Shown here in pieces: positions 2,444 to 54,699 of a DNA stretch of 64,000 bases; the stretch's first letter is position 1, and each line of letters opens with the position of its first letter. The stretch lies in the NCBI GenBank assembly GCA_964016885.1, contig OZ024740.1, positions 363,568,001 through 363,632,000 of the forward strand, given 5' to 3'. This DNA is from Eledone cirrhosa. Lineage: Eukaryota. Below the pieces are notes generated by a model. It was not told the DNA's origin. It did not search any database and saw nothing but the letters and a program-made list of their open reading frames with translations. A program made the position numbers and the translations under genes.

Positions 2444-2669
2444 ACCATTTTAGATATTTTTAACTAAATCTCTATCAGAATCAGTATTGTCTTACACTCT
2501 CTCATGCACCCCACTCATATTATTTCGCCCTCAAAAAATAACAACTTGACCAGTGTCAGATAGATTTTAAGAATAAGTTAAGATATTCCAATCATATATT
2601 ATATTATATTTAATTTCATAAATGTTTTCTTCTCTGCCTTTAAAATTGTTCAATTCTATTACCCTACAG

Positions 2670-4172: not shown

Positions 4173-4360
4173 GAAGAACAAAAGATAATATTAGTGATTT
4201 ATCTTCAAATGAATCAGATGTGTATATCCCTGATTTTTCATCCGATGATGATTGTTGTTATGAAAGTGAAAGCAAAGGAGATCTCCAGGACGCCATTGAA
4301 AATATTACAGCAACGTGATTGAGAAACACCACACCAATACATGTTCCTGATTTCATTGAA
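4173..4360 (+). pseudogene. piggyBac-type transposase N-terminal fragment (acidic region), continuing in frame into the satellite
   Basis: Manual translation: DNISDLSSNESDVYIPDFSSDDDCCYESESKGDLQDAIENITAT*(likely W)LRNTTPIHVPDFIE-NTDPQHTLRPDAGP. An acidic leader followed by W...P.F...GP is typical of the start of PGBD-like transposases. It is on the same strand as the C-terminal fragment at 52693. Confidence 0.65.
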
Positions 4361-7300
4361 AATACTGATCCACAACACACATTACGTCCTGATGCTGGTC
4401 CACAATACACATTACCTCCTGATGCTGGTCCACAATAAACATTACCTCCCAATACTGGTCCACAACACATATTACCTCCTGATGCCGGTCCACAATACAC
4501 ATTACCTCCCAATACTGGTCCAGAACGCACATTACCTCCCAATACTGGTCCACAACACACATTACCTCCCAATACTGGTCCACAATACACATTACCTCCC
4601 AATACTGGTCCACAACGCACATTACCTCCCAATACTGGTCCACAACACACATTACCTCCCAATACTGGTCCATAATACACATTACCTCCCAATACTGGTC
4701 CCCAACACACATTACCTCCCAATACTGGTCCACAATACACATTACCTCCCAATACTGGTCCACAACGCACATTACCTCCCAATACTGGTCCACAACACAC
4801 ATTACCTCCCAATACTGGTCCACAATACACATTACCTCCCAATACTGGTCCACAACGCACATTACCTCCCAATACTGGTCCACAACACACATTACCTCCC
4901 AATACTGGTCCACAATACACATTACCTCCCAATACTGGTCCACAACACACATTACCTCCCAATACTGGTCCACAATACACATTACCTCCCAATACTGGTC
5001 CACAACGCACATTACCTCCCAATACTGGTCCACAACACACATTACCTCCCAATACTGGTCCCCAACACACATTACCTCCCAATACTGGTCCACAATACAC
5101 ATTACCTCCCAATACTGGTCCACAACGCACATTACCTCCCAATACTGGTCCACAACACACATTACCTCCCAATACTGGTCCACAATACACATTACCTCCC
5201 AATACTGGTCCACAACGCACATTACCTCCCAATACTGGTCCACAACACACATTACCTCCCAATACTGGTCCACAATACACATTACCTCCCAATACTGGTC
5301 CACAACACACATTACCTCCCAATACTGGTCCACAACACACATCACCTCCCAATACTGCTCCCCAACACACATTACCTCCCAATACTGGTCCACAACACAC
5401 ATTACCTCTCAATACTGGACCACAACACACATTACCTCCCAATACTGGTCCACAACACACATTCCCTCCTGATGCTGGTCCACAACACACATCACCTCCC
5501 AATACTGGTCCACAAGACACATTACCTCCCAATACTGGTCTACAACACACATTCCATCCTGCTGCTGGTCCACAACACACATCACCTCCCAATACTGGTC
5601 CACAACAAACATTACCTCCCAATACTGGTCCACAACACACATTACCTCCTGATGCTGGTCCACAACACACATTACCTCCCAATACTGGTCCACAACATAC
5701 ATTACCTCCTGATGCTGGTCCACATCACACATTACCTCCCAATACTGGTCCACAACACACATCACCTCCCAATATTGGTCCACAACACACATCACCTCCC
5801 AATACTGGTCCACAACACACGTTACCTCCTGATGCTGGTCCACAACACACATCACCTCCCAATACTGGTCAACAACACACATTACCTCCTGCTGCTGGTC
5901 CACAGCACACATTACCTCCCAATACTGGTCCCCAACGCACATTACCTCCTGATGCTGGTCCACAACACACATTACCTCCCAATACTGGTCCACAACATAT
6001 ATTACCTCCCAATACTGATCCACAACACACTTAACCTCCGAATACTGGTCCCCAACACACATTCCCTCCCAATACTGGTCCCCAACACACATTCCCTCCC
6101 AATACTGGTCCACAATACACATTACCTCCCAATACTGGTGCACAATACACATTACCTCCCAATACTGGTCCACAACACACATTACCTCCTGATACTGGTC
6201 CCCAACACACATTACCTCCTGATGCTGCTCCACAACACACATTACCTCCCAATACTGGTCCCCAACACACATTCCCTCCCAATACTGGTCCACAATACAC
6301 ATTACCTCCCAATACTGGTCCACAACACACATTACCTCCCAATACTGGTCCATAACACACATTACCTCCCAATGCTGGTTCACAACACACATTACCTCTT
6401 GATGCTGGTCCACAACACACATTACCACCCAATACTGGTCCAGAACACACATTACCTCCCAATACTAGTCCCCAACACACATTACCTCCTGATGCTGGTC
6501 CACAACACACATTACCTCCCAATACTGCCCCACAACGTAGATTACCTCCCAATACTGGTCCACAACACACATTACCTCCCATTACTGGTCCACAACACAC
6601 GTTATCTCCCAATACTGGTCCACAACACACATTACCTCCTGATGCTGGTCCACAACACACATTACCTCCCAATATTGGTCCACAACACACATTACCTCCC
6701 AATACTGGTCCCCAACGCACATTACCTCACAATACTGGTCTACAACACACATTACCTCCCAATACTGGTTCCCAACACACATTACCTCCCAATACTGGTC
6801 CACAACGCACATTACCTCCCAATACTGGTCCACAACACACATTACCTCCCAATACTGCTCCCCAACACACATTACCTCCCAATACTGGTCCACAACACAC
6901 ATTACCTCTCAATACTGGTCCACAACACACATTACCTCCCAATACTGATCCACAACACACATTCCCTCCTGATGCTGGTTCACAACACACATCACCTCCC
7001 AATACTGGTCCACAAGACACATTACCTCCCAATACTGGTCTACAACACACATTCCATCCTGATGCTGGTCCACAACACACATCACCTCCCAATACTGGTC
7101 CACAACACACATTACCTCCCAATACTGGTCCACAACACACATTACCTCCTGATGCTGGTCCACAACACACATTACATCCCAATACTGGTCCACAACATAC
7201 ATTACCTCCTGATGCTGGTCCACATCACACATTACCTCCCAATACTGGTCCACAACACACATCACGTCCCAATATTGGTCCACAACACACATTACCTCCC

Positions 7301-10300
7301 AATACTGGTCCACAACACACATTACCTCCTGATGCTGGTCCACAACACACATTACCTCCCAATACTGGTCCACAACATATATTACCTCCCAATACTGATC
7401 CACAACACACTTAACCTCCCAATACTGGTCCCCAACACACATTCCCTCCCAATACTGGTCCCCAACACACATTCCCTCCCAATACTGGTCCACAATACAC
7501 ATTACCTCCCAATACTGGTGCACAATACACATTACCTCCCAATACTGGTCCACAACACACATTACCTCCTGATGCTGGTCCCCAACACACATTACCTCCT
7601 GATGCTGGTCCACAACACACATTACCCCCCAATACTGGTCCCCAACACACATTCCCTCCCAATACTGGTCCACAATACACATTACCTCCCAATACTGGTG
7701 CACAATACACATTACCCCCCAATACTGGTCCACAACACACATTACCTCCTGATGCTGGTCCCCAACACACATTACCTCCTGATGCTGGTCCACAACACAC
7801 ATTACCTCCCAATACTGGTCCACAACACACATTACCTCCCAATACTGGTCCACAACACACATTACCTCCCAATACTGGTCCACAGCACACATTACCTCCC
7901 AATACTGGTCCACAACACACATTACCTCCCAATGCTGATCCACAACACACATTACCTCCTGATGCTGGTCCACAACACACATTACCTCCTAATACTGGTC
8001 CACAACACACATTACCTCCCAATACTGGTCCACAACACACATTACCTCCCAATACTGGCCCACAACACACATTACCTCCCAATACTGGTCTCCAACACAC
8101 ATTACCTCCCAATACTGGTCGACAACACACATTACCTCCCAATACTGGTCCACAACACACATTACCTCCCAATGCTGGTCCACAACACACATTACCTCCT
8201 GATGCTGGTCCACAACACACATTACCTCCCAATACTGGTCCACAACACACATTACCTCCCAATACTGGTCCAGAACACAGATTACCTCCCAATACTGGTC
8301 CACAACACACATTACCTCCCAATGCTGGTCCACAACACACATTACCACCTGATGCTGGGGTCCACAACACACATTACCTCCCAATACTGGTCCACAACAC
8401 ACATTACCTCCCAATACTGGTCCACAACACACATTACGTCCTGATGCTGGTCCACAACACACATTACCTCCCAATACTGGTCCCCAACGCACATTACCTC
8501 ACAATACTGGTCCACAACACACATTAGCTCCCAATACAGGTCCCCAACACAAATTCCCTCCCAATACTGGCCCACGACACACATTACCTCCCAGTACTGG
8601 TCCACAACACACATTACCTCCTGATGCTGGTCCACAACGCACATTACCTGCCAATACTGGTCCACAATAGACATTATCTCCAAATACTGGTCCAGAACAC
8701 ACATTACCTCCCAATATTGGTCCACAACACACATCACCTCCCAATACTGGTCCACAACACACATTACCTCCTGATGCTGGTCCAAAACACACTTTACCTC
8801 CCAATACTGGTCAACAACACACATTACCTCCTGCTGCTGGTCCACAGCACACAGTACCTCCCAATACTGGTCCCCAACACACATTACCTCCTGATGCTGG
8901 TCCACAACACACATTACCTCCCAATACTGGTCCACAAAAACATTACCTCCCAATACTGGTCCACAACACACATTACCTCCCAATACTGGTCCCCAACACA
9001 CATTCCCTCCCAATACTGGTCCCCAACACACATTCCCTCCCAATACAGGTCCACAATACACATTACCTCCCAATACTGGTCCACAACACACATTACCTCC
9101 CAATGCTGGTCCACAACACACATTCCCTCCCAATACTGGTCCACAATACACATTACCTTCCAATACTGGTCCACAACACACATTACCACCCAATACTGGT
9201 CCACAACACACATTACCTCCCAATACTGGTCCACAACACACAATACCTCCCAATGCTGGTCCACAACACACACTACCTCCTGATGCTGGTCCACAACACA
9301 CATTACCTACCAATACTGGTTCACAACACACATTACCTCCTGATGCTGGTCCACAACACACATTACCTCCCAATACTGGTCCACAACACACATTCCCTCC
9401 CAATACTGGTCCACAACACACATTACCTCCCAATACTGGTCCACAACACATATTACCTCCTGATGCTGGTTCACAATACACATTCCCTCCCAATACTGGT
9501 CCACAACGCACATTACCTCCCAATACTGTTCCCCAACACACATTACCTCCCAATACTGGTCCCCAACACACATTACCTCCTGATGCTGGTCCGCAGCACA
9601 CATTACCTCCCAATACTGGTCCACAAAACATATTACCTCCCAATACTGGTCCCCAACACACATTATCTCCCAATACTGGTCCCCAACACACATTTCCTCC
9701 CAATACCGGTCCAAAACACATTACCTGCTGATGCTGGTACCCAACACACATTACCTCCTGATGCTGGTCCACAACACACATTACCTCCCACTACTGGTCC
9801 ACAAAGCACATTACCCCCCAATACTGGTCCCCAACACACGTTACCTCCCAATACTGGTCCCCAACACACATTACCTCCCAATACTGGTCCACAACGCACA
9901 TTACCTCCCAATACTGGTCCACAACACACATTACCTCCTGATGCTGGTCCACAACACACATTACCTCCCAATACTGGTCCACAACACACATTTCCTCCTG
10001 ATGCTGGTCCGCAGCACACATTACCTCCCAATACTGGTCCACAACACACATTACCTCACAATATTGGGACACAACACACATTACCTCCCAATACTGGGCA
10101 ACAACACACATTACCTCCCAATACTGGGCCACAACACACATTACCTCCCAATACTGGTCCACAACACACATTACCTCCCAATACTGGTCCACAACACACA
10201 TTACATCCCAATACTGGTCCACAACACACATTACCTCCCAATACTGGTCCACAACACACATTACCTCCTGATGCTGGTCCACAACACACATTACCTCCCA

Positions 10301-19300: not shown

Positions 19301-22300
19301 ACCTCCCAATACTGGTACACAACACACATTACCTTCCAATACTGGTCCACAATACACATTACCTCCCAATACTGGTCGACAACACACATTACCTCCCAAT
19401 ACTGGTCCACAACCCACATTAAATCCCAATACTGGTACACAACACACATTACCTCCTAATGCTGGTCCACAACACACATTACCTCCCAATACTGGTCCAC
19501 AACACACATTACCTCCCAATACTGCTCCAGAACACACATTACCTCCTGATGCTGGTCCACAACACACATTACCTCCCAATACTGGTAACAACACTCATCA
19601 CCTCCCAATACTCGTCCACAACACTTATCACCTCCCAATACTGGTCCACAACACACATCACCTCCCAATACTCGTCGACAACACACATTACCTCCTGACG
19701 CTGGTCCACAACACACATTACCTCCCAATACTGATCACCAACACACATTACCTCCTGATGCTGGTCCACAACACACATTACCTCCCAATACTGGTCTACA
19801 AAAACATTAGCTCCCAATACTGGTCCACAACACACATTACCTCCCAATACTTGTCCACAACACACATTCTCTCCCAATACTGGTCCACAACACACATTCC
19901 CTCCCAATACTCGTCCACAACACACATTCCCTCCTGATGCTGGTCCACAACACGCATTACCTCCTGATGCTGGTCCACAACACATATTCCCTCCCCATAC
20001 TGGTCCACAACACACATTCCCTCCTAATACTGTTCCACAACACACATAAACTCCCCATAATGTTCCTCAACATACATTCCCTCCCAATACTGGTCCACAA
20101 CACACATTCCTTCCTAATACTGGTCCCCAAAACACATTACCTCCCAATAGTGGTCCACAACACAGATTAACTCCCAATACTGGTCCACAACACAAATTAC
20201 CTCCCAATACTGGTCCCAAACACACATTACCTCCCAATACTGGTCCACAACACACATTCCCTCCCAACACTGGTCCACAACACACATTACCTCCCAATAA
20301 TGGTCCACAACACACATTACATCCCAATACTGGTCCACAACACACATTACCTCCCAATACTGATCACCAACACATATTACCTCCTGATGCTGGTCCACAA
20401 CACACATTACCTCCCAATACTGGTCTACAAACACATTAGCTCCCAATACTGGTCCACAACACACATTCTCTCCCAATACTGGTCCACAACACACGTTCCC
20501 TCCCAATACTCGTCCACAACACACATTCCCGCCTGATGCTGGTCCACAACACGCATTACCTCCTGATGCTGGTCCACAACACACATTACCTCCCGATACT
20601 GGTCCCCAACAAACATTACCTCCCAATACTGGTCCACAACACACATTACCTCCCCATACTGGTCGACAACACACATTCCCTCCTAATACCGTTCCACAAC
20701 ACACATTGCCTACCCATAATGTTACTCAACACACATTACCTCCCAATACTGGTCCACAACACACATTCCTTCCTAATACTGGTCCCCAACACAAATTACC
20801 TCCCAATACTGGTCCCCAACACACATTACCTCCCAATACTGGTCCACAACACACATAACCTCCTGATGCTGGTCCATAACACACATTCCATCCTGATGCT
20901 GGTCCACAACACACATTTCCTCCTGATGCTGGTCCACAACACACCTTTCCTCCTGATGGTGGTCCACAACACACATTACCTCCTGATGCTGGTCCACAAC
21001 ACACATTACCTCCCAATACTGGTCCACAACACATATTACCTCCCAATACTAGTCCACAACACACGTTATCTCCCAATACTGGTCCACAACACACATTACC
21101 TCCCAATACTGGTCCACAACACACATTACCTCCCAATACTGGTCCACAACATACATTACCTCCCAATACTGGTCCACAACACACATTACCTCCCAATACT
21201 GGTCCAAACACACATTACCTCCTGATGCTGGTGCACAACACACATTCCCTCCTTATGCTGGTCCACAACACACATTACCTCCCAATACTGGTCCACAAAA
21301 TACATTACCTCCCAATACTGGTCCACAACACACATTACCTCCCAATACTGGTCCACAACACACAATCCCTTCCAATACTGGTCCACAACACAGATTCCCT
21401 CCCAATACTGGTCCACAACACACATTACCTCCTGATGCTGGTCCACTACACACATTACCTCCCAATACTGGTCCACAACACACATTACCTCCCAACACTG
21501 GTCCACAACACACATTCCCTCCGAATACTGGTCCACAACACACATTTCCTCCTGATGCTGGTCCACAACACACATTACGTCCCAATACTGGGCCACAGTA
21601 CAGATTACCTCCCAATACTGGGCCACAACACACATTACCTCCCAATACTGGTCCACAACACACATTACCTCCCAATACTGGGCCACAACACACATTACCT
21701 CCCAATACTGGTCTACAAAACACATTAACTCTCAATACTGGTCCCCAACACACATTACCTTCCAATACTGGTCCACAACACACATTAACTCTCAATACTG
21801 GTCCCCAATACTGGCCCCCAACACACATTACCTCCCAATACTGGTTCACAACGCACATTACCTCCCAATACTGGTCCACAATAGACATTACCTCCTGATG
21901 CTGGTCCACAACACACATTACCTCCCAATACTGGTCCACAACACACATTTCCTCCTGATGCTGGTCCACAACACACATTCCCTCCCAATACTGGTCTACA
22001 ATACATATTACCTCCTGATGCTGGCCCACAACACACATTACCTCCCAATACTGGTCCACAACACACATTACCTACTGATGCTGGTCCACAACACACATTA
22101 CCTCCCAATACTGGCCCACAACACAGATTACCTCCCAATACTGTGCCACAACACACAGTACCTCCCAATACTGGGCCACAACACACATTACCTCCCAATA
22201 CTGGTCCACAACACACATTCCCTCCTGATGATGGTCCACAACACACATTACCTCCTGATACTGGTCCACAACACACATTACCTCCCAATACTTGTCCACA

Positions 22301-25300
22301 ACACACATTACCTCCCAATACTGGTCCACAACACACATTACCTCGCAATGCTGGTCCACAACACAGATTCCCTCCTGATACTGGTCCACAACACACATTA
22401 CCTCCCAATACTGGTCCACAACACACATTCCCTCCTGATACTGGTCCACAACAAACATTCCCTCCTGATGCTGGTCCATAACACACATTACCTCATGATA
22501 CTGGTACACAACACACATTACCTCCCAATACTGGTCCAAAACACACGTTACCTCCCAATACTGGTCCACAACACACATTCCTTCCCAATACTGGTCCACA
22601 ACTCACATTAACTCCCAATACTAGTCCACAACACACATTACCTCCCAATACTGGTCTACAAAAACATTAGCTCCCAATACTGGTCCACAACACACATTAC
22701 CTCCCAATACTGGTCCACAACACACATTCTCTCCCAATACTGGTCCACAACACACATTCCCTCCCAATACTCGTCCACAACACACATTCCCTCCTGATGC
22801 TGGTCCACAACACGCATTACCTCCTGATGCTGGTCCACAACACATATTCCCTCCCCATACTGGTCCACAACACACATTCCCTCCTAATACTGTTCCACAA
22901 CACACATAAACTCCCCATAATGTTCCTCAACATACATTCCCTCCCAATACTGGTCCACAACACACATTCCTTCCTAATACTGGTCCCCAAAACACATTAC
23001 CTCCCAATAGTGGTCCACAACACAGATTAACTCCCAATACTGGTCCACAACACAAATTACCTCCCAATACTGGTCCCAAACACACATTACCTCCCAATAC
23101 TGGTCCACAACACACATTCCCTCCCAACACTGGTCCACAACACACATTACCTCCCAATAATGGTCCACAACACACATTACATCCCAATACTGGTCCACAA
23201 CACACATTACCTCCCAATACTGATCACCAACACATATTACCTCCTGATGCTGGTCCACAACACACATTACCTCCCAATACTTGTCTACAAACACATTAGC
23301 TCCCAATACTGGTCCACAACACACATTCTCTCCCAATACTGGTCCACAACACACGTTCCCTCCCAATACTCGTCCACAACACACATTCCCGCCTGATGCT
23401 GGTCCACAACACGCATTACCTCCTGATGCTGGTCCACAACACACATTACCTCCCGATACTGGTCCCCAACAAACATTACCTCCCAATACTGGTCCACAAC
23501 ACACATTACCTCCCCATACTGGTCGACAACACACATTCCCTCCTAATACCGTTCCACAACACACATTGCCTACCCATAATGTTACTCAACACACATTACC
23601 TCCCAATACTGGTCCACAACACACATTCCTTCCTAATACTGGTCCCCAACACAAATTACCTCCCAATACTGGTCCCCAACACACATTACCTCCCAATACT
23701 GGTCCACAACACACATAACCTCCTGATGCTGGTCCATAACACACATTCCATCCTGATGCTGGTCCACAACACACATTTCCTCCTGATGCTGGTCCACAAC
23801 ACACCTTTCCTCCTGATGGTGGTCCACAACACACATTACCTCCTGATGCTGGTCCACAACACACATTACCTCCCAATACTGGTCCACAACACATATTACC
23901 TCCCAATACTAGTCCACAACACACGTTATCTCCCAATACTGGTCCACAACACACATTACCTCCCAATACTGGTCCACAACACACATTACCTCCCAATACT
24001 GGTCCACAACATACATTACCTCCCAATACTGGTCCACAACACACATTACCTCCCAATACTGGTCCAAACACACATTACCTCCTGATGCTGGTGCACAACA
24101 CACATTCCCTCCTTATGCTGGTCCACAACACACATTACCTCCCAATACTGGTCCACAAAATACATTACCTCCCAATACTGGTCCACAACACACATTACCT
24201 CCCAATACTGGTCCACAACACACAATCCCTTCCAATACTGGTCCACAACACAGATTCCCTCCCAATACTGGTCCACAACACACATTACCTCCTGATGCTG
24301 GTCCACTACACACATTACCTCCCAATACTGGTCCACAACACACATTACCTCCCAACACTGGTCCACAACACACATTCCCTCCGAATACTGGTCCACAACA
24401 CACATTTCCTCCTGATGCTGGTCCACAACACACATTACGTCCCAATACTGGGCCACAGTACAGATTACCTCCCAATACTGGGCCACAACACACATTACCT
24501 CCCAATACTGGTCCACAACACACATTACCTCCCAATACTGGGCCACAACACACATTACCTCCCAATACTGGTCTACAAAACACATTAACTCTCAATACTG
24601 GTCCCCAACACACATTACCTTCCAATACTGGTCCACAACACACATTAACTCTCAATACTGGTCCCCAATACTGGCCCCCAACACACATTACCTCCCAATA
24701 CTGGTTCACAACGCACATTACCTCCCAATACTGGTCCACAATAGACATTACCTCCTGATGCTGGTCCACAACACACATTACCTCCCAATACTGGTCCACA
24801 ACACACATTTCCTCCTGATGCTGGTACACAACACACATTACCTCCCAATACTGGTCCACAACACACATTCCCTCCCAATACTGGTCTACAATACACATTA
24901 CCTCCTGATGCTGGCCCACAACACACATTACCTCCCAATACTGGTCCACAACACACATTACCTACTGATGCTGGTCCACAACACACATTACCTCCCAATA
25001 CTGGCCCACAACACAGATTACCTCCCAATACTGTGCCACAACACACAGTACCTCCCAATACTGGGCCACAACACACATTACCTCCCAATACTGGTCCACA
25101 ACACACATTCCCTCCTGATGATGGTCCACAACACACATTACCTCCTGATACTGGTCCACAACACACATTACCTCCCAATACTTGTCCACAACACACATTA
25201 CCTCCCAATACTGGTCCACAACACACATTACCTCGCAATGCTGGTCCACAACACAGATTCCCTCCTGATACTGGTCCACAACACACATTACCTCCCAATA

Positions 25301-37300: not shown

Positions 37301-40300
37301 AACACACATTACCTCCCAATACTGGTCCACAACACACATTCCCTACCGATACTGGTCCACCACACACATTACCTCCCAATACTGGTCCACAACACACATT
37401 CCCACACAATACTGGTCCACAATACACATTCCCTCCTGATGCTGGTCCACAACACACATTCCCTCCCAATACTGGACCACAACACACATTACCTCCCAAT
37501 ACTGGTCCACAACACACATTCCCACACAATACTGGTCCACAATACACATTACCTCCCTATACTGGTCCACAACACACATTACCTCCTGATGCTGGTCCAC
37601 AACACACATTCCCTCCCAATACTGGTACACAACACATATTCCCTCCTGATGCTGGTCCACAACATACATTACCTCCCAATACTGGTCCACAACACACATT
37701 ACCTCCCAATACTGGTCCACAACACACATTACCTCCCAATACTGGTCCACAACACACATTACCTCCTAATACTGGTCCACAACACACATTACCTCCTGAT
37801 GCTGGTCCACTACACACATTACCTCCCAATACTGGTCCACAACACACATTACCTCCCTATACTGGTCCACAACACACATTACCTCCCAATACTGGTCCAA
37901 AACACACATTACCTCCCAATACTAGTCCACAACACACGTTACCTCCCAATACTGGTCCACAACACACATTGCCTCCTGATACTGGTCCACTACACACATT
38001 ACCTCCCAATACTGGTCCACAACACACATTACCTCCCAATACTGGTCCACAACACACATAACCTCCTGATGCTGGTCCATAACACACATTCCCTCCTGAT
38101 GCTGGTCCACAACACACATTTCCTCCTGATGCTGGTCCACAACACACATTACCTCCTGATGCTGGTCCACAACACACATTACCTCCCAATACTGGTCCAC
38201 AACACATATTACCTCCCAATACTGGTCCACAACACACATTCCCTCCTGATGCTGGTCCACAACACACATTACCTCCCAATACTGGTCCACAACACACATT
38301 ACCTCCCAATAATTGTCCACAACACACATTACCTCCCAATACCGGTCCACAACACACATTACCTCCCAATACTGGTCCACAACACACATCACCTCCCAAT
38401 ACTGGTCCACAACACACATTACCTCCTGATGCTGGTCCACAACACACATTCCCTCCCAATACTGATCCACAACACACATTACCTCCCAATACTGGTCCAC
38501 AACACACATTACCTACCAATACTGCTCCACAACACACATTACCTCCCAATACTGGTCCACAACACACGTTACCTCCTGATGCTGGTCCACAACACACATT
38601 ACCTCCCAATACTGGTCCACAACACACATTACCTCCCAATACTGGTCCACAACACACATTACCTCCCAATACTGGTCCACAACAAACATTACCTCCCAAT
38701 ACTGTTCCACAACACACATTACCTCCAAATACTGGTCCACAACACACATTACCTCCCAATACTGGTCCACAACACACATTACCTCCTGATGCTGGTCCAC
38801 AACACACATTACCTCCCAATACTGGCCCACAACACACATTACCTCCCAATACTGGTCCACAACACACATTACCTCCTGATGCTGGTCCACAACACACATT
38901 ACCTCCCAATACTTGTCCACAACACATATTACCTCCTGATGCTGGTCCACAGCACACATTACCTCCTGATACTGGTCCACAACACATATTACCTCCTGAT
39001 GCTGGTCCACAACACACATTACCTCCCAATACTGGTCCACAACACACATTACCTCCTGATGCTGGTCCAAAACACACATTACCTCCCAATACTGGCCCAC
39101 AACACACATTACCTCCCAATACTGGTCCACAACACACATTACCTCCTGATGCTGGTCCACAACACACATTACCTCCCAATACTGGTCCACAACACACATT
39201 ACCTCCCAATACTGTTCCACAACACACATTACCTCCAAATACTGGTCCACAACACACATTACCTCCCAATACTGGTCCACAACACACATTACCTCCTGAT
39301 GCTGGTCCACAACACACATTACCTCCCAATACTGGCCCACAACACACATTACCTCCCAATACTGGTCCACAACACACATTACCTCCTGATGCTGGTCCAC
39401 AACACACATTACCTCCCAATACTTGTCCACAACACTCATTACCTCCTGATGCTGGTCCACAGCACACATTACCTCCTGATACTGGTCCACAACACATATT
39501 ACCTCCTGATGCTGGTCCACAACACACATTACCTCCCAATACTGATCTTCAAAACACATTACCTCCCAATACTGGACCACAAACAACATTACCTCCCAAT
39601 ACTGGTCTCCAACACACATTACCTCCCAATACTGGTCCACAACACACATTACCTCCCAATACTGGTCCACAACACACATTACCTCCCAATAATGGTCCAC
39701 AACACACGTTACTTCCCAATACTGGTCCACAACACACATTAATTCCTGATGCTGGCCAGAACACACATAACCTCCCAATACTGGTCCATAACATACATTA
39801 CCTCCCAATACTGGTCCCCAACACAAATTACCTCCCAATACTGGTCCACAAAACACATTACTTCCCAATACTGGTACACAACACACATTACCTCCCAATA
39901 CTGATCCACAACACACATTACCTCCCAATACTGGTCCACAACACACATTACCTCCCAATACTGATCCACAACACACATTACCTCCCAATACTGGTCCACA
40001 ACACACATTACCTCCCAATAATGGTACACAACACACATTACCTTCCAATACTGTTCCACAACACGCAATACCTTTCAATACTGGTCCACAACACACTTTA
40101 CCTCCCAATAATGGTACACAACACACATTACCTCCCAATAATGGTACACAACACACATTACCTCCCAAAACTGGTCGACAACACACATTACCTCCCAATA
40201 CTGGTCCACAACACACATTACCTACTGATGCTGGTCCACAACACACATTCCCACCTGATGCTGGTCCACAACACACATTACCTCCCAATACTGGTCACAA

Positions 40301-43300
40301 CACACATTCCCTCCTGATGCTGGTCCACAACACACATTACCTCCCAATACTGGTCCACAACACACATTACCTCCCAATAATTGTCCACAACACACATTAC
40401 CTCCCAATACCGGTCCACAACACACATTACCTCCCAATACTGGTCCACAACACACATTACCTCCCAATACTGGTCCACAACACACATTACCTCCTGATGC
40501 TGGTCCACAACACACATTCCCTCCCAATACTGACCCACAACACACATTACCTCCCAATACTGGTCCACAACACACATTACCTACCAATACCGGTCCACAA
40601 CACACATTACCTCCCAATACTGGTCCACAACACACGTTACCTCCCAATACTGGTCCACAACACACATTACCTCCCAATACTGGTCCACAACACACATTAC
40701 CTCCAAATACTGGTCCATAACACACATTAACTCCCAATACTGGTACACAACACACATTACCTCCTGATGCTGGACAACAGCAGACATTACCTCCCAATAC
40801 TGGTCCACAACACACATTACCTCCCAATACTGGTCCACAACACACAGTACCTCCAAATACTGGTCCACAACACACATTACCTCCCAATATTGGTCCACAA
40901 CACACATTCCCTACCGATACTGGTCCACCACACACATTACCTCCCAATACTGGTCCACAACACACATTCCCACACAATACTGGTCCACAATACACATTCC
41001 CTCCTGATGCTGGTCCACTACACACATTACCTCCCAATACTGGTCCACAACACACATTACCTCCCTATACTGGTCCACAACACACATTACCTCCCAATAC
41101 TGGTCCAAAACACACATTACCTCCCAATACTAGTCCACAACACACGTTACCTCCCAATACTGGTCCACAACACACATTGCCTCCTGATACTGGTCCACTA
41201 CACACATTACCTCCCAATACTGGTCCACAACACACATTACCTCCCAATACTGGTCCACAACACACATAACCTCCTGATGCTGGTCCATAACACACATTCC
41301 CTCCTGATGCTGGTCCACAACACACATTTCCTCCTGATGCTGGTCCACAACACACATTACCTCCTGATGCTGGTCCACAACACACATTACCTCCCAATAC
41401 TGGTCCACAACACATATTACCTCCCAATACTGGTCCACAACACACATTCCCTCCTGATGCTGGTCCACAACACACATTACCTCCCAATACTGGTCCACAA
41501 CACACATTACCTCCCAATAATTGTCCACAACACACATTACCTCCCAATACCGGTCCACAACACACATTACCTCCCAATACTGGTCCACAACACACATCAC
41601 CTCCCAATACTGGTCCACAACACACCTTACCTCCTGATGCTGGTCCACAACACACATTCCCTCCCAATACTGATCCACAACACACATTACCTCCCAATAC
41701 TGGTCCACAACACACATTACCTACCAATACTGCTCCACAACACACATTACCTCCCAATACTGGTCCACAACACACGTTACCTCCTGATGCTGGTCCACAA
41801 CACACATTACCTCCCAATACTGGTCCACAACACACATTACCTCCCAATACTGGTCCACAACACACATTACCTCCCAATACTGGTCCACAACACACATTAC
41901 CTCCCAATACTGTTTCACAACACACATTACCTCCAAATACTGGTCCACAACACACATTACCTCCCAATACTGGTCCACAACACACATTACCTCCTGATGC
42001 TGGTCCACAACACACATTACCTCCCAATACTGGTCCACAACACACATTACCTCCTGATGCTGGTCCACAGCACACATTACCTCCTGATACTGGTCCACAA
42101 CACATATTACCTCCTGATGCTGGTCCACAACACACATTACCTCCCAATACTGGTCCACAACACACATTACCTCCTGATGCTGGTCCAAAACACACATTAC
42201 CTCCCAATACTGGTCCACAACACACATTACCTCCTGATGCTGGTCCAAAACACACATTACCTCCCAATACTGGTCCACAACACACATTACCTCCTGATGC
42301 TGGTCCAAAACACACATTACCTCCCAATACTGGCCCACAACACACATTACCTCCCAATACTGGTCCACAACACACATTACCTCCTGATGCTGGTCCACAA
42401 CACACATTACCTCCCAATACTTGTCCACAACACACATTACCTCCTGATGCTGGTCCACAACACACATTACCTCCCAATACTTGTCCACAACACTCATTAC
42501 CTCCTGATGCTGGTCCACAGCACACATTACCTCCTGATACTGGTCCACAACACATATTACCTCCTGATGCTGGTCCACAACACACATTACCTCCAAATAC
42601 TGGTCCATAACACACATTAACTCCCAATACTGGTACACAACACACATTACCTCCTGATGCTGGACAACAGCAGACATTACCTCCCAATACTGGTCCACAA
42701 CACACATTACCTCCCAATACTGGTCCACAACACACATTACCTCCAAATACTGGTCCACAACACACATTACCTCCCAATATTGGTCCACAACACACATTCC
42801 CTACCGATACTGGTCCACCACACACATTACCTCCCAATACTGGTCCACAACACACATTCCCACACAATACTGGTCCACAATACACATTCCCTCCTGATGC
42901 TGGTCCACAACACACATGCCCTCCCAATACTGGACCACAACACACATTACCTCCCAATACTGGTCCACAACACACATTCCCACACAATACTGGTCCACAA
43001 TACACATTACCTCCCTATACTGGTCCACAACACACATTACCTCCTGATGCTGGTCCACAACACACATTCCCTCCCAATACTGGTACACAACACATATTCC
43101 CTCCTGATGCTGGTCCACAACACACATTACCTCCCAATACTGGTCCACAACACACATTACCTCCCAATACTGGTCCACAACACACATTACCTCCCAATAC
43201 TGGTCCACAACACACATTACCTCCTAATACTGGTCCACAACACACATTACCTCCTGATGCTGGTCCACTACACACATTACCTCCCAATACTGGTCCACAA

Positions 43301-46300
43301 CACACATTACCTCCCTATACTGGTCCACAACACACATTACCTCCCAATACTGGTCCAAAACACACATTACCTCCCAATACTAGTCCACAACACACGTTAC
43401 CTCCCAATACTGGTCCACAACACACATTGCCTCCTGATACTGGTCCACTACACACATTACCTCCCAATACTGGTCCACAACACACATTACCTCCCAATAC
43501 TGGTCCACAACACACATAACCTCCTGATGCTGGTCCATAACACACATTCCCTCCTGATGCTGGTCCACAACACACATTTCCTCCTGATGCTGGTCCACAA
43601 CACACATTACCTCCTGATGCTGGTCCACAACACACATTACCTCCCAATACTGGTCCACAACACATATTACCTCCCAATACTGGTCCACAACACACAATCC
43701 CTCCTGATGCTGGTCCACAACACACATTACCTCCCAATACTGGTCCACAACACACATTACCTCCCAATAATTGTCCACAACACACATTACCTCCTGATGC
43801 TGGTCCACAACACACATTCCCTCCCAATACTGATCCACAACACACATTACCTCCCAATACTGGTCCACAACACACATTACCTACCAATACTGCTCCACAA
43901 CACACATTACCTCCCAATACTGGTCCACAACACACGTTACCTCCTGATGCTGGTCCACAACACACATTACCTCCCAATACTGGTCCACAACACACATTAC
44001 CTCCCAATACTGGTCCACAACACACATTACCTCCTGATGCTGGTCCACAACACACATTACCTCCCAATACTGGTCCACAACACACATTACCTCCCAATAC
44101 TGGTCCACAACACACATTACCTCCTGATGCTGGTCCACAACACACATTACCTCCCAATACTTGTCCACAACACACATTACCTCCTGATGCTGGTCCACAG
44201 CACACATTACCTCCTGATACTGGTCCACAACACATATTACCTCCTGATGCTGGTCCACAACACACATTACCTCCCAATACTGGTCCACAACACACATTAC
44301 CTCCTGATGCTGGTCCAAAACACACATTACCTCCCAATACTGGCCCACAACACACATTACCTCCCAATACTGGTCCACAACACACATTACCTCCTGATGC
44401 TGGTCCACAACACACATTACCTCCCAATACTGGTCCACAACACATATTACCTCCTGATGCTGGTCCACAACACACATTACCTCCCAATACTGGTCTACAA
44501 ACACATTACCTCCCAATACTGGACCACAAACAACATTACCTCCCAATACTGGTCTCCAACACACATTACCTCCCAATACTGGTCCACAACACACATTACC
44601 TCCCAATACTGGTCCACAACACACATTCCCTCCCAATACTCGTCCATAACACACATTCCCTCCCAATACTGGTCCACAACACACATTCCCTCCCAACACT
44701 GGTCCACAACACACATTCCCTCCTGATGCTGGTGCACAACACACATTCCCTCCCAATACTGGTCCACAACACACATTCCCTCCCAACACTGGTCAACAAC
44801 ACACATTCCCTCCTGATGCTGGTCCACAACACACATTACCTCCCAATACTTGTCCACAACACACATTCCCTCCCAATACTGCTCCACAACACACATTCCC
44901 TCCCAACACTGGTCCACAACACACATTACCTCCTGATGCTGGTCCACAACACACATTCCCTCCCAATACTTGTCCACAACACACATTACCTCCCAATACT
45001 GGTCCACAATACACATTACCTCCCAATACTGGTCCACAACACACATTACCTCCCAATACTGGTCCACAACACACATTACCTCCCAATACTGGTCCACAGC
45101 ACACATTACCTCTCAATAATGGTCCACAACACACATTACCTCCTGATGCTGGTCCACAACACACATTACCTCCCAATACTGGTCCACAACACACATTACC
45201 TCCTGATGCTGGTCCACAACACACATTCCCTCCCAATACTGGTCCACAACACATATTCCCTCCTGATGCTGGTCCACAACACACATTACCTCCCAATACT
45301 GGTCCACAACACACATTACCTCCTGATGCTGGTCCACAACACACATTACCTCCTAATACTGGTCCACAACACACATTACCTCCCGATGCTGGTCCACTAC
45401 ACACATTACCTCCCAATACTGGTCCACAACACACATTACCTCCCTATACTGGTCCACAACACACATTACCTCCCAATACTGGTCCAAAACACACATTACC
45501 TCCCAATACTAGTCCACAACACATGTTACCTCCCAATACTGGTCCACAACACACATTGTCTCCTGATACTGGTCCACTACACACATTACCTCCCAATACT
45601 GGTCCACAACACACATAAACTCCTGATGCTGGTCCATAACACACATTCCCTCCTGATGCTGGTCCACAACACACATTTCCTCCTGATGCTGGTCCACAAC
45701 ACACATTACCTCCTGATGCTGGTCCACAACACACATTACCTCCCAATACTGGTCCACAACACATATTACCTCCCAATACTGGTCCACAACACACATTACC
45801 TCCCAATACTGGTCCACAACACACATTACCTCCCAATACTGGTCCACAACACACATTACCTGCCAATACGGGTCCACAACATACATTAACTCCCAATAAC
45901 TGGTCCACAACACACATTACCTACCAATACTGGTCCACAACACAAATTACATCGCAATACTGGTCCACAAAACACATTACCTGCTGATTGTGGTGCACAA
46001 CACACATTAACTCCCAATACTGGTCCACAACACACATTACATCGCAATACTGGTCCACAAAACACATTACCTCCCAATACTGGTCCACAACACACATTAC
46101 CTCCTGATGCTGGTCCATAACACATATTACCTCCCAATACTGGTCCACAACACACATTACGTCCCAATACAGGTCCACAACACACATTACCTCCCAATAC
46201 TGGTCCACAACACACATTACCTCCTGATACTGTTCCACAACACACATTACTTCCCAATACTGGTCCACAACACACATTACCTCCCAATACTGGTCCACAA

Positions 46301-49300
46301 CACACATTACCTCCCAATACTGGTCCACAACACACATTACCTCCAAATACTGGTCCACAACACACATTAACTCCCAATACTGGTACACAACACACATTCC
46401 CTCCTGATGCTGGTCCACAGCACACATTACCTCTCAATACTGGTCCACAACACACATTACCTCCTGATGCTGGTCCACAACACACATTACCTCCCAATAC
46501 TGGTCCACAGCACACGTTACCTCTCAATACTGGTCCACAACACACATTACCTCCTGATGCTGGTCCACAACACACATTACCTCCAAATACTGGTCCACAA
46601 CACACATTAACTCCCAATACTGGTCCACAACACACATTCCCTCCTGATGCTGGTCCACAGCACACATTACCTCTCAATACTGGTCCACAACACACATTAC
46701 CTCCTGACGCTGGTCCACAACCCACATTCCCTCCCAATACTGGTCCACAACACACATTCCCTCCCAATACTGGTCCACAACACACATTCCCTCCCAATAC
46801 TGGTCCACAACACACATTACCTCCCAATACTGGTCCACAACACACATTCCCTCCCAATACTGGTCCACAACACACATTACCTCCCAATTCTGGTCAACAA
46901 CACACATTACCTCCCAATACTGGTCCACAACACACATTACCTCCCTATACTGGTCCACAACACACATTACCTCCCAATACTGGTCCACTACACACATCAC
47001 CTCCCAATACTGGTCCACAACACACATTTCCTCCTGATGCTGGTCCACAACACACATTTCCTCCTGATGCTGGTCCACAACAAACATTCCCTCCTGATGC
47101 TGGTCCACAACACACATTTCCTCCTGATGCTGGTCCACAACACACATTTCCTCCTGATGCTGGTCCACAACAAACATTCCCTCCTGATGCTGGTCCATAA
47201 CACACATTACCTCCCAATACTGGTCCACAACACACATTACCTCCCAATACTGGTCCACAACACACATTACCTCCCAATACTGGTCCACAACACACATTAC
47301 CTCCCAATACTGGTCCACAATACACATTACCTCCCAATACTGGTCCACTACACACATTACCTCCCAATACTGGTCCACAACACACATTACCTCCCAATAC
47401 TGGTCCACTACACACATTACCTCCCAATACTGGTCCACAATACACATTACCTCCCAATACTGGTCCACTACACACATTACCTCCCAATACTGGTCCACAA
47501 CACACATTACCTCCCAATACTGGTCCACAACACACATTCCCTCCTGATGCTGGTCCATAACACACATTCCCTCCTGATGCTGGTCCACAACACACATTAC
47601 CTCCCAATACTGGTCCACAATACACATTACCTCCCAATACTGGTCCACAACACACATTACCTCCTGATGCTGGTCCATAACACACATTCCCTCCTGATGC
47701 TGGTCCACAACACACATTTCCTCCTGATGCTGGTCCACAACACACATTACCTCCTGATGCTGGTCCACAACACACATTACCTCCCAATACTAGTCCACAA
47801 CACACGTTACCTCCCAATACTGGTCCACAACACACATTGCCTCCTGATACTGGTCCACTACACACATTACCTCCCAATACTGGTCCACAACACACATTAC
47901 CTCCCAATACTGGTCCACAACACACATAACCTCCTGATGCTGGTCCATAACACACATTCCCTCCTGATGCTGGTCCACAACACACATTTCCTCCTGATGC
48001 TGGTCCACAACACACATTACCTCCTGATGCTGGTCCACAACACACATTACCTCCCAATACTGGTCCACAACACATATTACCTCCCAATACTGGTCCACAA
48101 CACACATTACCTCCCAATACTGGTCCACAACACACATTACCTCCCAATACTGGTCCACAACACACATTACCTGCCAATACGGGTCCACAACATACATTAA
48201 CTCCCAATAACTGGTCCACAACACACATTACCTACCAATACTGGTCCACAACACAAATTACCTCCCAATACTGGTCCCAACACACATTACCTGCTGATTG
48301 TGGTGCACAACACACATTAACTCCCAATACTGGTCCACAACACACATTACATCGCAATACTGGTCCACAAAACACATTACCTCCCAATACTGGTCCACAA
48401 CACACATTACCTCCTGATGCTGGTCCATAACACATATTACCTCCCAATACTGGTCCACAACACACATTACGTCCCAATACTGGTCCACAATACACATTAC
48501 CTCCCAATACTGGTCCACAACACACATTACCTCCCAATACTGGTCCACAACACACATTACCTCCTGATACTGTTCCACAACACACATTACTTCCCAATAC
48601 TGGTCCACAACACACATTACCTCCCAATACTGGTCCACAACACACATTACCTCCCAATACTGGTCCACAACACACATTACCTCCAAATACTGGTCCACAA
48701 CACACATTAACTCCCAATACTGGTACACAACACACATTCCCTCCTGATGCTGGTCCACAGCACACATTACCTCTCAATACTGGTCCACAACACACATTAC
48801 CTCCTGATGCTGGTCCACAACACACATTACCTCCCAATACTGGCCTACAACACACATTACCTCCCAATACTGGTCCACAACACACATTACCTCCCAATAC
48901 TGGTCCACAACACACATTACCTCCTGATGCTGGTCCACAGCACACGTTACCTCTCAATACTGGTCCACAACACACATTACCTCCTGATGCTGGTCCACAA
49001 CACACATTAACTCCCAATACTGGTACACAACACACATTCCCTCCTGATGCTGGTCCACAGCACACATTACCTCTCAATAGTGGTCCACAACACACATTAC
49101 CTCCTGACGCTGGTCCACAACCCACATTCCCTCCCAATACTGGTCCACAACACACATTCCCTCCTGATCTGGTCCACAACACACATCTCCTCCCAATACT
49201 GGTCCACAACACACATTACCTCCCAATACTGGTCCACAACACACATTACCTCCTAATACTGGTCTACAACACACATTACCTCCTGATGCTGGTCCACTAC

Positions 49301-52300
49301 ACATATTACCTGCCAATACTGTTCCACAACACACATTACCTCCCTATACTGGTCCACAACACACATTACCTCACAATACTGGTCCACTACACACATCACC
49401 TCCCAATACTGGTCCACAACACACATAACCTCCTGATGCTGGTCCATAACACACATTCCCTCCTGATGCTGGTCCACAACACACATTTCCGCCTGATGCT
49501 GGTCCACAACACACATAACCTCCTGATGCTGGTCCATAACACACATTACCTCATGATACTGGTACACAACACACATTACCTCCCAATACTGGTCCACAAC
49601 ACACATTACCTCCTGATGCTGGTCCACTACACATATTACCTGCCAATACTGTTCCACAACACACATTACCTCCCAATACTGTTCCACAACACACATTACC
49701 TCCCAATACTGGTCCACAACACACATTACCTCACAATACTGGTCCACTACACACATCACCTCCCAATACTGGTCCACAACACACATTTCCTCCTGATGGT
49801 GGTCCACAACACACATAACCTGCTGATGCTGGTCCCCAACACACATTTCCTCTTGTGCAGGTCTCCAACACACATTACCTCCCAATACTGGTCCACAACA
49901 CATATTACCTCCCAATACTGGTCCACAACACACATTACCTCCCAATACTGGTCCACAACACACATTACCTACCAATACTGGTCCACAACACACATTACCT
50001 ACCAATACTGGTCCACAACACACATTACCTCCCAATACTGGTCCACAACACACATTACCTCCCAATACTGGTCCACAACACATATTACCTCCCAATACTG
50101 GTCCACAACACACATTACCTCCCAATACTGGTCCACAACACACATTACCTACCAATACTGGTCCACAACACACATTACCTGCCAATACGGGTCCACAACA
50201 TACATTAACTCCCAATAACTGGTCCACAACACACATTACCTACCAATACTGGTCCACAACGCAAATTACCTCCCAATACTGGTCCCAACACACATTACCT
50301 CCTGATTGTGGTGCACAACACACATTAACTCCCAATACTGGTCCACAACACACATTACATCCCAATACTGGTCCACAATACACATTACCTCCCAATACTG
50401 GTCCACAACACACATTACCTCCCAATACTGGTCCACACACACATTACCTCCTAATTGTGGTCCACAACGCAAATTACCTCCCAATACTGGTCCCAACACA
50501 CATTACCTCCTGATTGTGGTGCACAACACACATTACCTCCCAATACTGGTCCACAACACATATTACCTCCCAATACTGGTCCACAACACACATTACCTCC
50601 CAATACTGGTCCACAACACACATTACCTCCCAATACTGGTCCACAACACACATTACTTCCCAATACTGGTCCACAACACACATTACCTCCCAATACTGGT
50701 CCACAACACACATTACCTCCCAATACTGGTCCACAACACACATTACCTCCAAATACTGGTCCACAACACACATTAACTCCCAATACTGGTACACAACACA
50801 CATTCCTTCCTGATGCTGGTCCACAGCACACATTACCTCTCAATACTGGTCCACAACACACATTACCTCCTGACGCTGGTCCACAACACACATTAACTCC
50901 CAATACTGGTCCACAACACACATTCCCTCCTGATCTGGTCCACAACACACGTTTCCTCCCAATACTGGTCCACAACACACATTAACTCCCAATACTGGTC
51001 CACAACACACATTCCCTCCCAATACTGATCCACAACACACATTACCTCCTGATACTGGTCCACAACACACATTACCTCCCAATACTGATCCACAACACAC
51101 ATTACCTCCTGATACTGGTCCACAACACACATTACCTCCCAATACTGATCCACAACACACATTACCTCCTGATACTGGTCCACAACACACATTACCTCCC
51201 AATACTGGTCCACTACACACATCACCTCCCAATACTGGTCCACAACACACATAACCTCCTGATGCTGGTCCATAACACACATTCCCTCCTGATGCTGGTC
51301 CACAACACACATTTCCTCCTGATGCTGGTCCACAACACACATTACCTCCTGATGCTGGTCCCCAACACACATTTCCTCTTGTGCAGGTCTCCAACACACA
51401 TTACCTCCCAATACTGGTCCACAACACATATTACCTCCCAATACTGGTCCACAACACACATTACCTCCCAATACTGGTCCACAACACACATTACCTCCCA
51501 ATACTGGTCCACAACACACATTACCTGCCAATACGGGTCCACAACATACATTAACTCCCAATAACTGGTCCACAACACACATTACCTACCAATACTGGTC
51601 CACAACACAAATTACCTCCCAATACTGGTCCCAACACACATTACCTCCTGATTGTGGTGCACAACACACATTAACTCCCAATACTGGTCCACAACACACA
51701 TTACGTCCCAATACTGGTCCACAACACACATTACTTCCCAATACTGGTCCACAACACACATCACCTCCCAATACTGGTCCACAACACACATTACCTGCCA
51801 ATGCTGGTCCACAACACACATTACCTCCCAATACTGGTCCACAACACACATTACCTCCCAATACTGGTCCACAACACACATTACCTCCCAATACTGGTCC
51901 ACAACACACATTACCTCCAAATACTGGTCCACAACACACATTAACTCCCAATACTGGTACACAACAAACATTCCTTCCTGATGCTGGTCCACAGCACACA
52001 TTACCTCTCAATACTGGTCCACAACACACATTACCTCCTGATGCTGGTCCACAACACACATTACCTCCCAATACTGGCCCACAACACACATTACCTCCCA
52101 ATACTGGTCCACAACACACATTATCTCCTGATGCTGGTCCACAACCCACATTCCCTCCCAATACTGGTCCACAACACACATTTCCACCTGATTCTGGTCC
52201 CCAACACACATAACCTGCTGATGCTGGTCCACAACACACATTTCCTCCTGTGCAGGTCCCCAACACACATTACCTCCCAATACTGGTCCACAACACATAT

Positions 52301-52692
52301 TACCTCCCAATACTGGTCCACAACACACATTACCTCCCAATACTGGTCCACAACACACATTACCTGCCAATACGGGTCCACAACATACATTAACTCCCAA
52401 TAACTGGTCCACAATACACATTACCTACCAATACTGGTCCACAACACAAATTACCTACCAATACTGGTCCCAACACACATTACCTCCTGATGCTGGTGCA
52501 CAACACACATTACCTACCAATACTGGTCCACAACACAAATTACCTACCAATACTGGTCCCAACACACATTACCTCCTGATGCTGGTGCACAACACACATT
52601 AACTCCCAATACTGGTCCACAACACACATCACCACGCACTACTGGTCCACAAAACACATTACCTCCCAATACTGGTCCACAACACACATTAC
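4361..52692. repeat. ~48-kb tandem satellite/minisatellite, 30-bp unit, ~1,600 copies, two main variants (…CCCAATACTGGTCC… and …CCTGATGCTGGTCC…)
   Basis: A 30-bp period is directly visible from 4361 to 52692. Occasional 29-, 31-, 32- and 12-bp units shift the phase. The plus strand is strongly C/A-rich. Most units contain GGTCC. Confidence 0.99.
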
Positions 52693-53475
52693 TTATATAT
52701 TGGGCACATTCTGTAATGTAAATCTTCACAGACACATATTTTGACCGTTTTTTTCTTCGCTGCTTCTAGCAGAGGATCTTTCCCTTGTAAATACGTACAC
52801 TTGCAGTATAATAATGGGGAAACGCAAAGGGCTACCCCAAGAAATAAAATGTACTAAATTTAAAAAAAGAGGGAGGGGACATTCTTCAGGTGCAAAAAGG
52901 GAACATGTTAGCCACATTGTACAAAGAAAAATGGCAAATGTTGTTCCTATCTTTCAACCAACAACCAGGTGTTGGGGCTGAAGGTAAACCTTTAGTCAAC
53001 ATCTCCCACAATAAATATATGGGTGGGGGGTTGACAAATCTGACCAGTATTGCGCATATTACACAATTGGACGCCCTGGAAAGAAATGGTGGAGATATAT
53101 CTTGTGGTTTTTAGTGAATTTAACCATTGTGAATTCTTTTATTGTATTCACTAAAAGCTACAAGGATTGGCCACCACCAAAGGACTACTGCCACATGAAA
53201 TTTTGTGTGGACGTCGCATCTCAGTTACGTGGAGGACATACTTTTCACAAACACAAAGCTGGGAGAAAATCAAAATTATCTGAGGTAAACAAAGAAATAT
53301 TGATTTTCATAAAGTGGAGAAAATTGATGGGAGGAAGGTTTGCTGAATGTGTTCTTTGCAAAAAAGAAAAACTGCTAAACGTTACCAAATTGAAATCTCA
53401 TTTATGTGTTCCTTTTCCAAAGTGCCATTATGTAAAGTGTGTTTTGGCCAATTCCACAATAGAAATATTGTCTGA
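52693..53475 (+). pseudogene. piggyBac transposase C-terminal half (DDE_Tnp_1_7-like core plus Cys-rich domain), decayed
   Basis: Reading across frameshifts: HRHI.FDRFF(S)SLLLAEDL...TYTCS...RKGLP, KPLVNISHNKYMGGVDKSDQYCAYYTIGRPGKKWWRYILWFLVNLTIVNSFIVF, then C-terminal C*MC...SFMCSFSKVPLCKVCFGQFH, stop at 53473-53475. These correspond to the second and third catalytic-Asp regions and the CRD of piggyBac. Confidence 0.9.
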
Positions 53476-53995
53476 AAATATTGAAAAATATATTGGAACA
53501 CGTTATGTACGGAAACACCTGCATTCACCTGTGTCACACCTGCATCACACCTGTTAATGGAGTATCTTAATGTTCTATGTACTCACTAGTTATCAAAAAT
53601 CTTTAATCACATTGCATTTATGTATTTCAGGTATCCTGTTGATGAAAGTGGTACTGTTAAATGAACCCCTAAAGAATGACTACTCCTCAAGAAAATGCAC
53701 AATGTGTGTCATGGTTTATTGAAACAAAATCAGACTCAGCGAAACTACAGAACTAAGTATGGAAGAGATCCACCGTCACATCCGTCAATTCATGCATGGC
53801 ACAAGAAATTTATGGAAAGAGGAGCATTGTTGGATAAAGGCAGAAGTGGACGACTAAGAATATCTGAGGAAAACATCGATCGTGTAAGACAAGCCTTTCA
53901 GTGTTCTCCTACAAAGCCCATCTGTACTGCTGTCAGACAGTTACAGCTGCCACCTTCAACAGTACAAAAAGTCCTACACAAGAACTTGCAATTGT

Positions 53996-54044
53996 CATGT
54001 CATCATTATCATCATTTAACGTCCATCTTCCACGCTACCATGGG
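53996..54044 (-). mobile_element. ~50-bp 5'-truncated retroelement 3' end inserted into the DD41D transposase
   Basis: 'catcattatcatcatttaacgtccatcttccacgctaccatggg' interrupts ...aacttgcaattgt|atgcttacaaagtg (NL.LYAYKV). Its reverse complement ends in an (ATG)n-like tail, as in RTE-type 3' ends. Confidence 0.6.
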
Positions 54045-54699
54045 ATGCTTACAAAGTGTAAATCTTACAGATACTCAAGCCAAATGATAAACCAAGACGA
54101 AAAGAGTTTCCAGTTAGCATGCTGGAATGAATTTCTGAGGATGAAACGTTCCTCACCTGAGTTTGTTTTAGTTATGAGGCAACCTTTCATGTTTCATGGA
54201 AACTGAATACACATAATGTGAGAATCTGGGGATCAGAATACCCCCATGTGACTAGTGAACTTCACTGAGATAGTCCAAAGGTGGAATGTGTGGTGTGGAA
54301 TCATGTGCAATCAAATCATTGCTCCGCTTTTCTTCAATGAGACATCAGTTACTGCAAATGTTTACCTTAACCTTTTGACTGAACATGTGGCACCACAACT
54401 AGATGACCTTCAACAAACAATCATTTTCCAGCAAGATGGTGCACCACCAAAATGAGGACTGCATGTTCATGGGTTCCTAAATCAAATATTTCCAAACCGG
54501 TGGATTGGAAGGGATGGCCCAATTCCCTGGTCACCTCATTCACCAGATATCACTCCTCTGGACTTCTTCCTATGGAGTTATGTTATAGATATCGTGTATC
54601 GAACAAAGATACAGCGAACATGGCAAGAAATCGAGTACCGTCTTGATGTGATTCGTGCAACTAATGGTGCCCATATGGAGGTGTATTGAATTAGTTAAA

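Follow-up and report, generated by a model that had tools for sequence, protein, structure and literature searches.

A 48.3-kb block of short tandem repeats lies between two pieces of piggyBac-like sequence, which raises the question of where the repeat came from. An earlier note on this DNA proposed that ten codons of a piggyBac transposase gene were amplified in place about 1,600-fold, and that the parent gene still flanks the product. We examined this proposal in the window, the whole 64-kb stretch of DNA analysed here. Tandem Repeats Finder places the array at 4361-52692 on the plus strand, with a period of 30 and 1,609.8 copies. The ~1,610 head-to-tail units form the long, unbroken run of short monomers by which a satellite is recognized. 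Wraparound decomposition of 4361-52692 yields 1,616 units of 13 to 32 bp, every one on the plus strand, and reveals no unique insert. Beyond the array no unit-like sequence was found within the 64-kb window, the best match reaching 18 of 30 bases.

The units are varied. Among 1,570 full units there are 419 distinct sequences, diverging from the consensus by a mean of 3.9% at non-diagnostic positions, and 34.5% of the 61-mers of the array are unique. Forty-four units deviate from 30 bp and shift the frame. A shortened unit of 13 bp occurs seven times between 14469 and 30179, marking one duplicated sub-domain. The array contains no Ns. EcoRI sites are present at 2020 and 53131 and absent inside the array, and AvaII digestion in silico gives 1,268 cuts, with 1,006 of the 1,267 fragments measuring 30 bp and the others following mostly 60-bp steps. 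As a separate observation, C>A, G>T, C>T and G>A changes all occur equally often in the array (~2% each), an unusually high share of transversions.

The left side of the array reads as transposase. A 5' coding remnant of a piggyBac transposase, with an acidic leader and a W..V..F segment, occupies 4177-4360 (plus strand). Positions 4184-4396 align with amino acids 26-96 of P0166 (E 3e-12), a protein of 560 amino acids with the domains PF13843 and PF13842. The raw score of this alignment is 148, and the scores of 1,000 shuffled sequences do not exceed 54; the last 36 residues of the flank alone score 85, against shuffles of at most 46. These controls show that the homology is above chance, and the reading of 4173-4360 as piggyBac, on which the earlier proposal depended, is upheld. 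Translation of 4319-4435 gives LRNTTPIHVPDFIENTDPQHTLRPDAGPQ, running directly into the repeat in frame, just as had been claimed. An in-frame TGA at 4316-4318 stands where a conserved Trp is expected.

To view this locus beside its relatives we compared four of the seven sequencing runs on 4150-4425; X1 to X3 are contigs from one sample, and X5 consists of raw reads from another individual and study. Position 4318 is G in 39 of 41 X5 reads, an A>G difference in family copies by which the majority letters restore the Trp. The founder segment, 4361-4396 on the plus strand, comprises the first unit plus GATGCT, reads N-T-D-P-Q-H-T-L-R-P-D-A and corresponds to the single copy of the parent. It carries private changes at 4368 and 4386; at these two positions and at 4390 the family majority letters equal the array consensus. 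In the listed rows, the 220 bp of left flank depart from the family majority at about 18 sites. Set against the 3.9% divergence of the units, this suggests, by inference, that the array grew after insertion of the element.

Other family copies display the gene in its unexpanded state. Copies leave the window sequence directly after 4396 into K-A-L-D-Y-F/Y-F-L-F in X1 (2 of 320 contigs), X2 (4 of 389 contigs) and X5 (16 of 426 reads), and no K-A-L-D-Y-F exit follows 4396 among the rows listed for X3; a further 156 loose-end rows lie outside the listings. Other copies of the family carry one unit and then normal transposase, which is the outcome that the earlier note had named as support, and the claim of a satellite raised from ten piggyBac codons to ~1,610 units stands. 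The predicted form of the parent was wrong: it had been given as NTGPQHTLPPDAGP, with DA followed by GP, and the unexpanded copies read NTGPQHTLPP-DA-KALDYF. The second GP comes into being only where duplication joined two units, and this strengthens the case. In one of 48 distant homologues GP directly follows the unit, so a rare DAGP subfamily may exist.

Tandem units are present in the same runs, with the go-back joint 4419>4361 in two X2 contigs, loose ends that continue the unit in X1 and X2 contigs, and four X5 reads. Summed contig depth over the unit is 16,000-44,000, and long single-copy contigs have a depth of 9.5-15; the resulting ratio of ~1,000-3,800 is no true copy number. A total of the order of 10^3 unit copies weakly hints that there is perhaps no satellite family beyond this array. 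The unit has no match in JGI metagenome scans. A single JGI metagenome match to the junction motif was dismissed as chance, being unrelated past the 20 bases.

The placement of the unit within the protein agrees with this origin. Exhaustive protein search with the right flank returned 787 proteins at E<=0.001 (best 150 listed), and alignment search returned 284 proteins at E<=1e-20 (best 120 listed). Word-index searches gave no scored match for the right flank (59 candidates) or the left junction (26 candidates). Where the top matches listed have names, they are bivalve and shark piggyBac proteins of the PGBD4-like kind, with one uncharacterized lamprey protein. Among 92 full-length proteins, P0166 scores highest against the left flank and likewise against the right flank. 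Left and right scores correlate across homologues with rho 0.70 when the acidic leader is included and -0.02 when it is left out, which counts against the proposal, although P0166 is first either way. Among the proteins retrieved there was no full-length family member from the same species. The repeat unit falls in register on a conserved GP-x11-DYF segment, just N-terminal to the PF13843 domain. Of 95 proteins of at least 440 amino acids, 49 match the motif, and in 40 of these exactly 11 residues separate GP from D/E/N-[YF][FY]. Where the unexpanded copies read K-A-L-D-Y-F, P0166 has K-P-L-E-Y-F.

The strongest argument for birth inside a transposase gene comes from the joints between units. 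Two linked unit types make up the array: the NTGP type, joined at C|AATA, accounts for 1,093 junctions, and the DAGP type, joined at T|GATG, for 353. The unit of the parent has AATACT in front of it and closes with GATGCT; the two 6-mers lie exactly 30 bp apart, share four of six bases and both end in CT. The AATA-type joint links the downstream CCC of the parent to the upstream AATACT, and the GATG-type joint links the downstream GATGCT to the upstream GGT. Unexpanded sequence contains neither joint, yet it contains both sides of each. Hence the founding events had the gene's own edges within reach, and two monomer types that join opposite edges of the parent point to an origin of the array inside the transposase gene. 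By a hand calculation, the chance that two free point changes would recreate the upstream AATACT edge is ~3 in 10,000. The T that precedes GATG fits CpG deamination as judged from base counts: the boundary dinucleotide in the array is TG 408 times and CG 8 times, and most family copies have C at 4390 (20 of 24 X5 reads).

Downstream of the array lies the other end of the gene. The C-terminal half of piggyBac, 52727-53475 on the plus strand, corresponds to amino acids 311-560 of P0166, with the second Asp motif frameshifted, the third present and a Cys-rich tail. By tblastn, 52727-53466 aligns with these residues at E 5e-57, with identities of 55-71% by piece. Two stretches of the flank match the PF13843 (piggyBac DDE_Tnp_1_7) profile on the same strand, profile positions 214-269 under the curated cut-off (E 0.002) and positions 311-349 over it (E 2e-5). 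The Cys-rich zinc-finger tail (PF13842) is present at 53296-53466, with 35 of 53 positions matching amino acids 507-560 of P0166 and one stop inside. The assignment of the right flank to the C-terminal half, on the same strand, is thus borne out. What is probably the 3' untranslated region of the element, containing short CACCTG repeats, follows at 53476-53559 (plus strand).

The copy is far from intact. The right flank contains at least four frameshifts and one stop, and amino acids 97-310 of P0166 (214 codons) have no match anywhere in the window, so that the flanks are non-contiguous and the transposase to which the array is joined is a deletion derivative. The first catalytic Asp motif (P0166 amino acids 236-239) is missing from the window, the second is frameshifted and the third is present. 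Read from its sequence, this piggyBac copy is a pseudogene without a complete DDD triad in one frame rather than an active element. A motif scan and a repeat search within each flank recognised no terminal inverted repeats or TTAA duplication, and no terminal repeat was found after 53559. The copy shares PF13843, the Cys-rich tail and GP-x11-DYF with PGBD4-like transposases from marine invertebrates and from sharks (P0166, P0283, P0004, P0008); unlike these it is dead, having lost 214 codons and gained frameshifts and stops, and no termini were found for it.

At the right edge of the array, homology to P0166 begins only at 52727, and the ~30 bp of 52693-52723 are a junction piece with no transposase coding. 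In X2 and in X3, a single contig connects the 5' part of piggyBac (to 4346) with a stretch that begins with 13 bases matching 53547-53559 and closes with 14 bases matching 52691-52704. Pieces adjacent in this contig stand in swapped order in the window, with a 2-bp TC overlap at the deletion joint of the contig. Because of the swapped order, the junction piece is likely displaced 3' DNA of the element or the end of another element. A resemblance of the piece to 53488-53509 was rejected, its score of 26 equalling the 95th percentile of shuffles (26). The claim that the parent gene flanks the array therefore survives in part: both flanks belong to one piggyBac family, but what remains is a remnant without 214 codons, and its right junction is not seamless. 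The flanks could derive from two copies of the family.

The interior of the array records how it lengthened. Rare 61-mers are shared within domains of roughly 4-8, 8-36 and 36-52 kb, and four blocks of 0.6-2.2 kb are duplicated within the array with 2-5 mismatches each. In the recent duplication at 19764-24839 (plus strand), 2,216 bp recur at an offset of 2,860 with 3 mismatches, including an exact stretch of 1,543 bp. The shared 61-mers and near-identical copies indicate that later growth was by blocks. A signal of older edges was not significant, since 5.5% of 15-unit windows in the array are as diverged as the last 15 units.

We also asked whether the repeat is constrained as coding sequence. 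Changes per possible change amount to 19.3 for synonymous, 19.9 for nonsynonymous and 22.7 for stop-making changes, and 78 of 1,570 units contain a stop. Such similar frequencies argue for a repeat without coding constraint, and the array is most likely neutral DNA with no function indicated. A functional alternative, in which a proline-rich or mucin-like protein was built on the start of a domesticated transposase, would account for a unit of ten codons that begins in the transposase frame and for the longest stop-free run of 1,360 codons; the equal frequencies, the 44 frameshifting units, the stop at 4316 upstream and the missing gene start speak so strongly against it that we give it next to no credence. 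Hardly more can be said for an unrelated satellite that landed in a piggyBac copy and is similar to the gene by coincidence. Satellites and transposons are often found together and the right junction holds foreign bases, but the exactly one in-frame unit in unexpanded copies contradicts such an insertion, and the segment is conserved in distant transposases. That the repeat derives from piggyBac coding DNA is, in our judgement, nearly certain.

The length of the array and the place of its birth are further matters. A real array may have been inflated by falsely repeated assembly blocks, as the 2,216-bp near-repeat with its exact core might imply, and no read was placed across the array; given the variety of units and 61-mers, the 2-5 bases that separate duplicated blocks and the lack of Ns, we consider inflation very improbable. 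Birth in another copy of the same piggyBac family, followed by arrival through an array-bearing deletion derivative moved in trans or by ectopic recombination between copies, is unlikely, though it has points in its favour; it would make this locus one of several instead of the place of origin. The family is multi-copy with abundant deletion derivatives, several tnp2B-array loci are described in Chenopodium (PMC7320549), and the left junction of this locus is unseen in the X1-X3 contigs, which do contain the repeat: no X1-X3 contig covers 4150-4169 or the junction of LINE and piggyBac, and none spans the stretch, although contigs drop rare variants. Against this, the depth ratio is of the order of one array of 1,610 units, a weak point as it gives no copy number, and no termini were found at this locus. 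The array is 30 bp of piggyBac transposase coding DNA amplified in tandem, and we think it probable that it grew in place in this dead copy.

Growth in place could have proceeded as follows. Slippage or microhomology-guided repair between the look-alike 6-mers AATACT and GATGCT would produce a first duplication, and a misaligned exchange resolving ~6 bp further in the same register would create the second junction type. The two steps may have occurred in either order: the 2-bp CT microhomology speaks for the GATG type as the earlier one, and the CpG pattern for the AATA type. Together they would capture both edges of the parent as monomer variants, and the T before GATG would be a deaminated CpG. 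Repeated unequal exchange would then copy blocks of up to several kb. At some stage, a deletion from the array into the gene would have removed the 214 codons and left the ~30-bp foreign piece at the joint.

A stronger reading makes this locus the only birthplace of a young satellite confined to one locus and with a readable history, from a single-unit parent through two founding junctions and nested block duplications to 48 kb. We put it forward tentatively, as somewhat short of probable; if it is true, the length and presence of the array probably vary among individuals. The first steps from unique sequence to satellite are rarely visible, since in most cases the parent has disappeared or the array lies elsewhere. 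At this locus the parent, the junctions and the 48-kb product occur together, with unexpanded sister copies as controls, and microhomology seeding, unequal exchange and growth rate become testable in a population.

Four other proteins (P0005, P0006, P0011 and P0133; ENA, contigs of 209-738 kb) contain in-frame tandem repeats of 29 residues, with 3-5 matched stretches. The repeated part is another piggyBac segment, which surrounds the third catalytic Asp and has KY at either edge. From their sequences, these proteins look as if the same process had been at work independently on a small scale. Taken with these 29-codon repeats in four unrelated proteins, the sole-birthplace reading, if true, would mean that piggyBac coding DNA repeatedly seeds arrays at look-alike edges in register.

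The closest precedent, as described in its report, is the CficCl-61-40 satellite of Chenopodium, whose start monomer is ~40 bp from a deletion derivative of CACTA tnp2 (Belyayev et al. 2020, PMC7320549). Its linked arrays reach ~125 units (5 kb), the satellite is pan-chromosomal, and by that account complete tnp2 domains did not yield the start motif and no mechanism was decided on; an Arabidopsis En/Spm case is cited there as well (PMC7320549). Both cases involve a short piece of a transposase gene, kept in the transposase frame and orientation and attached to a deletion derivative. In contrast to the plant CACTA example and its ~125 units, the present array is of animal piggyBac origin and has ~1,610 units in 48 kb; in addition, a single-unit parent is seen, the downstream half of the gene is present, and two monomer types are traced to the parent's edges. 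Other ORF-related satellites are reviewed in PMC9659126 (HinfI/CR1 ORF2, PROsat/L1 ORF2 and a gag-related satellite of rye), which states that any part of a transposon can serve as a satellite source. Their monomers likewise resemble transposon coding DNA, but as reviewed there they are similarity matches to retroelements. In Lathyrus sativus, short arrays within Ogre elements occasionally lengthen into satellites (Vondrak et al., PMC7004042); those tandem arrays already existed inside LTR retrotransposons, whereas the parent segment here is single, non-repeated and coding. The word piggyBac does not occur in the main text of PMC9659126 or in the available text of the satellite review PMC12628747. 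We found no satellite from a piggyBac reading frame in the Creative Commons part of PMC and in bioRxiv, a body of literature that leaves most subscription papers outside. The route from transposase DNA to satellite is already published, and this case is unusual in its size and in the legibility of its founding junctions.

A mean length of ~7.7 kb is long for piggyBac. Octopus vulgaris carries 474 young PiggyBac insertions totalling 3.67 Mb, with a mean of ~7.7 kb (PMC13282606), and these long insertions might, going by the lengths given there, be array-bearing copies.

The surroundings of the array are a transposon graveyard. A resemblance to a SINE hints that the DNA may be octopod. To the left, a decayed LINE reverse-transcriptase fragment (2830-4176, plus strand, left bound approximate; RVT_1 matches at 3158-3418 and 3422-3730) adjoins piggyBac and replaces the 5' end of the element. 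Sequence upstream of 4177 differs in other family copies (16-18 contigs per run; 303 X5 reads). Over 4177-4227 the summed contig depth is ~40,000-50,000, and in 260 X5 reads the match to the window ends at 4227; this is the pattern of a very high-copy, MITE-like deletion derivative of this piggyBac family. To the right are two stretches that we take, by their motifs, to be decayed mariner-like elements (53676-54700 and 55115-56012, the second with inverted arms); the piece at 54456-54686 has no Pfam match. A search of Rfam gave no match. On the minus strand, 1783-2067 is a 95-codon open stretch behind a possible splice acceptor that ends in an acidic run and a stop; it has no Pfam or Atlas match, and it may be the last exon of a host gene, which would place the array in an intron or upstream. 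Degenerate direct repeats of 130-140 bp with 74-83% identity lie at 2172-2443, and a Helitron remnant with PIF1 and Helitron_like_N occupies 58546-61005.
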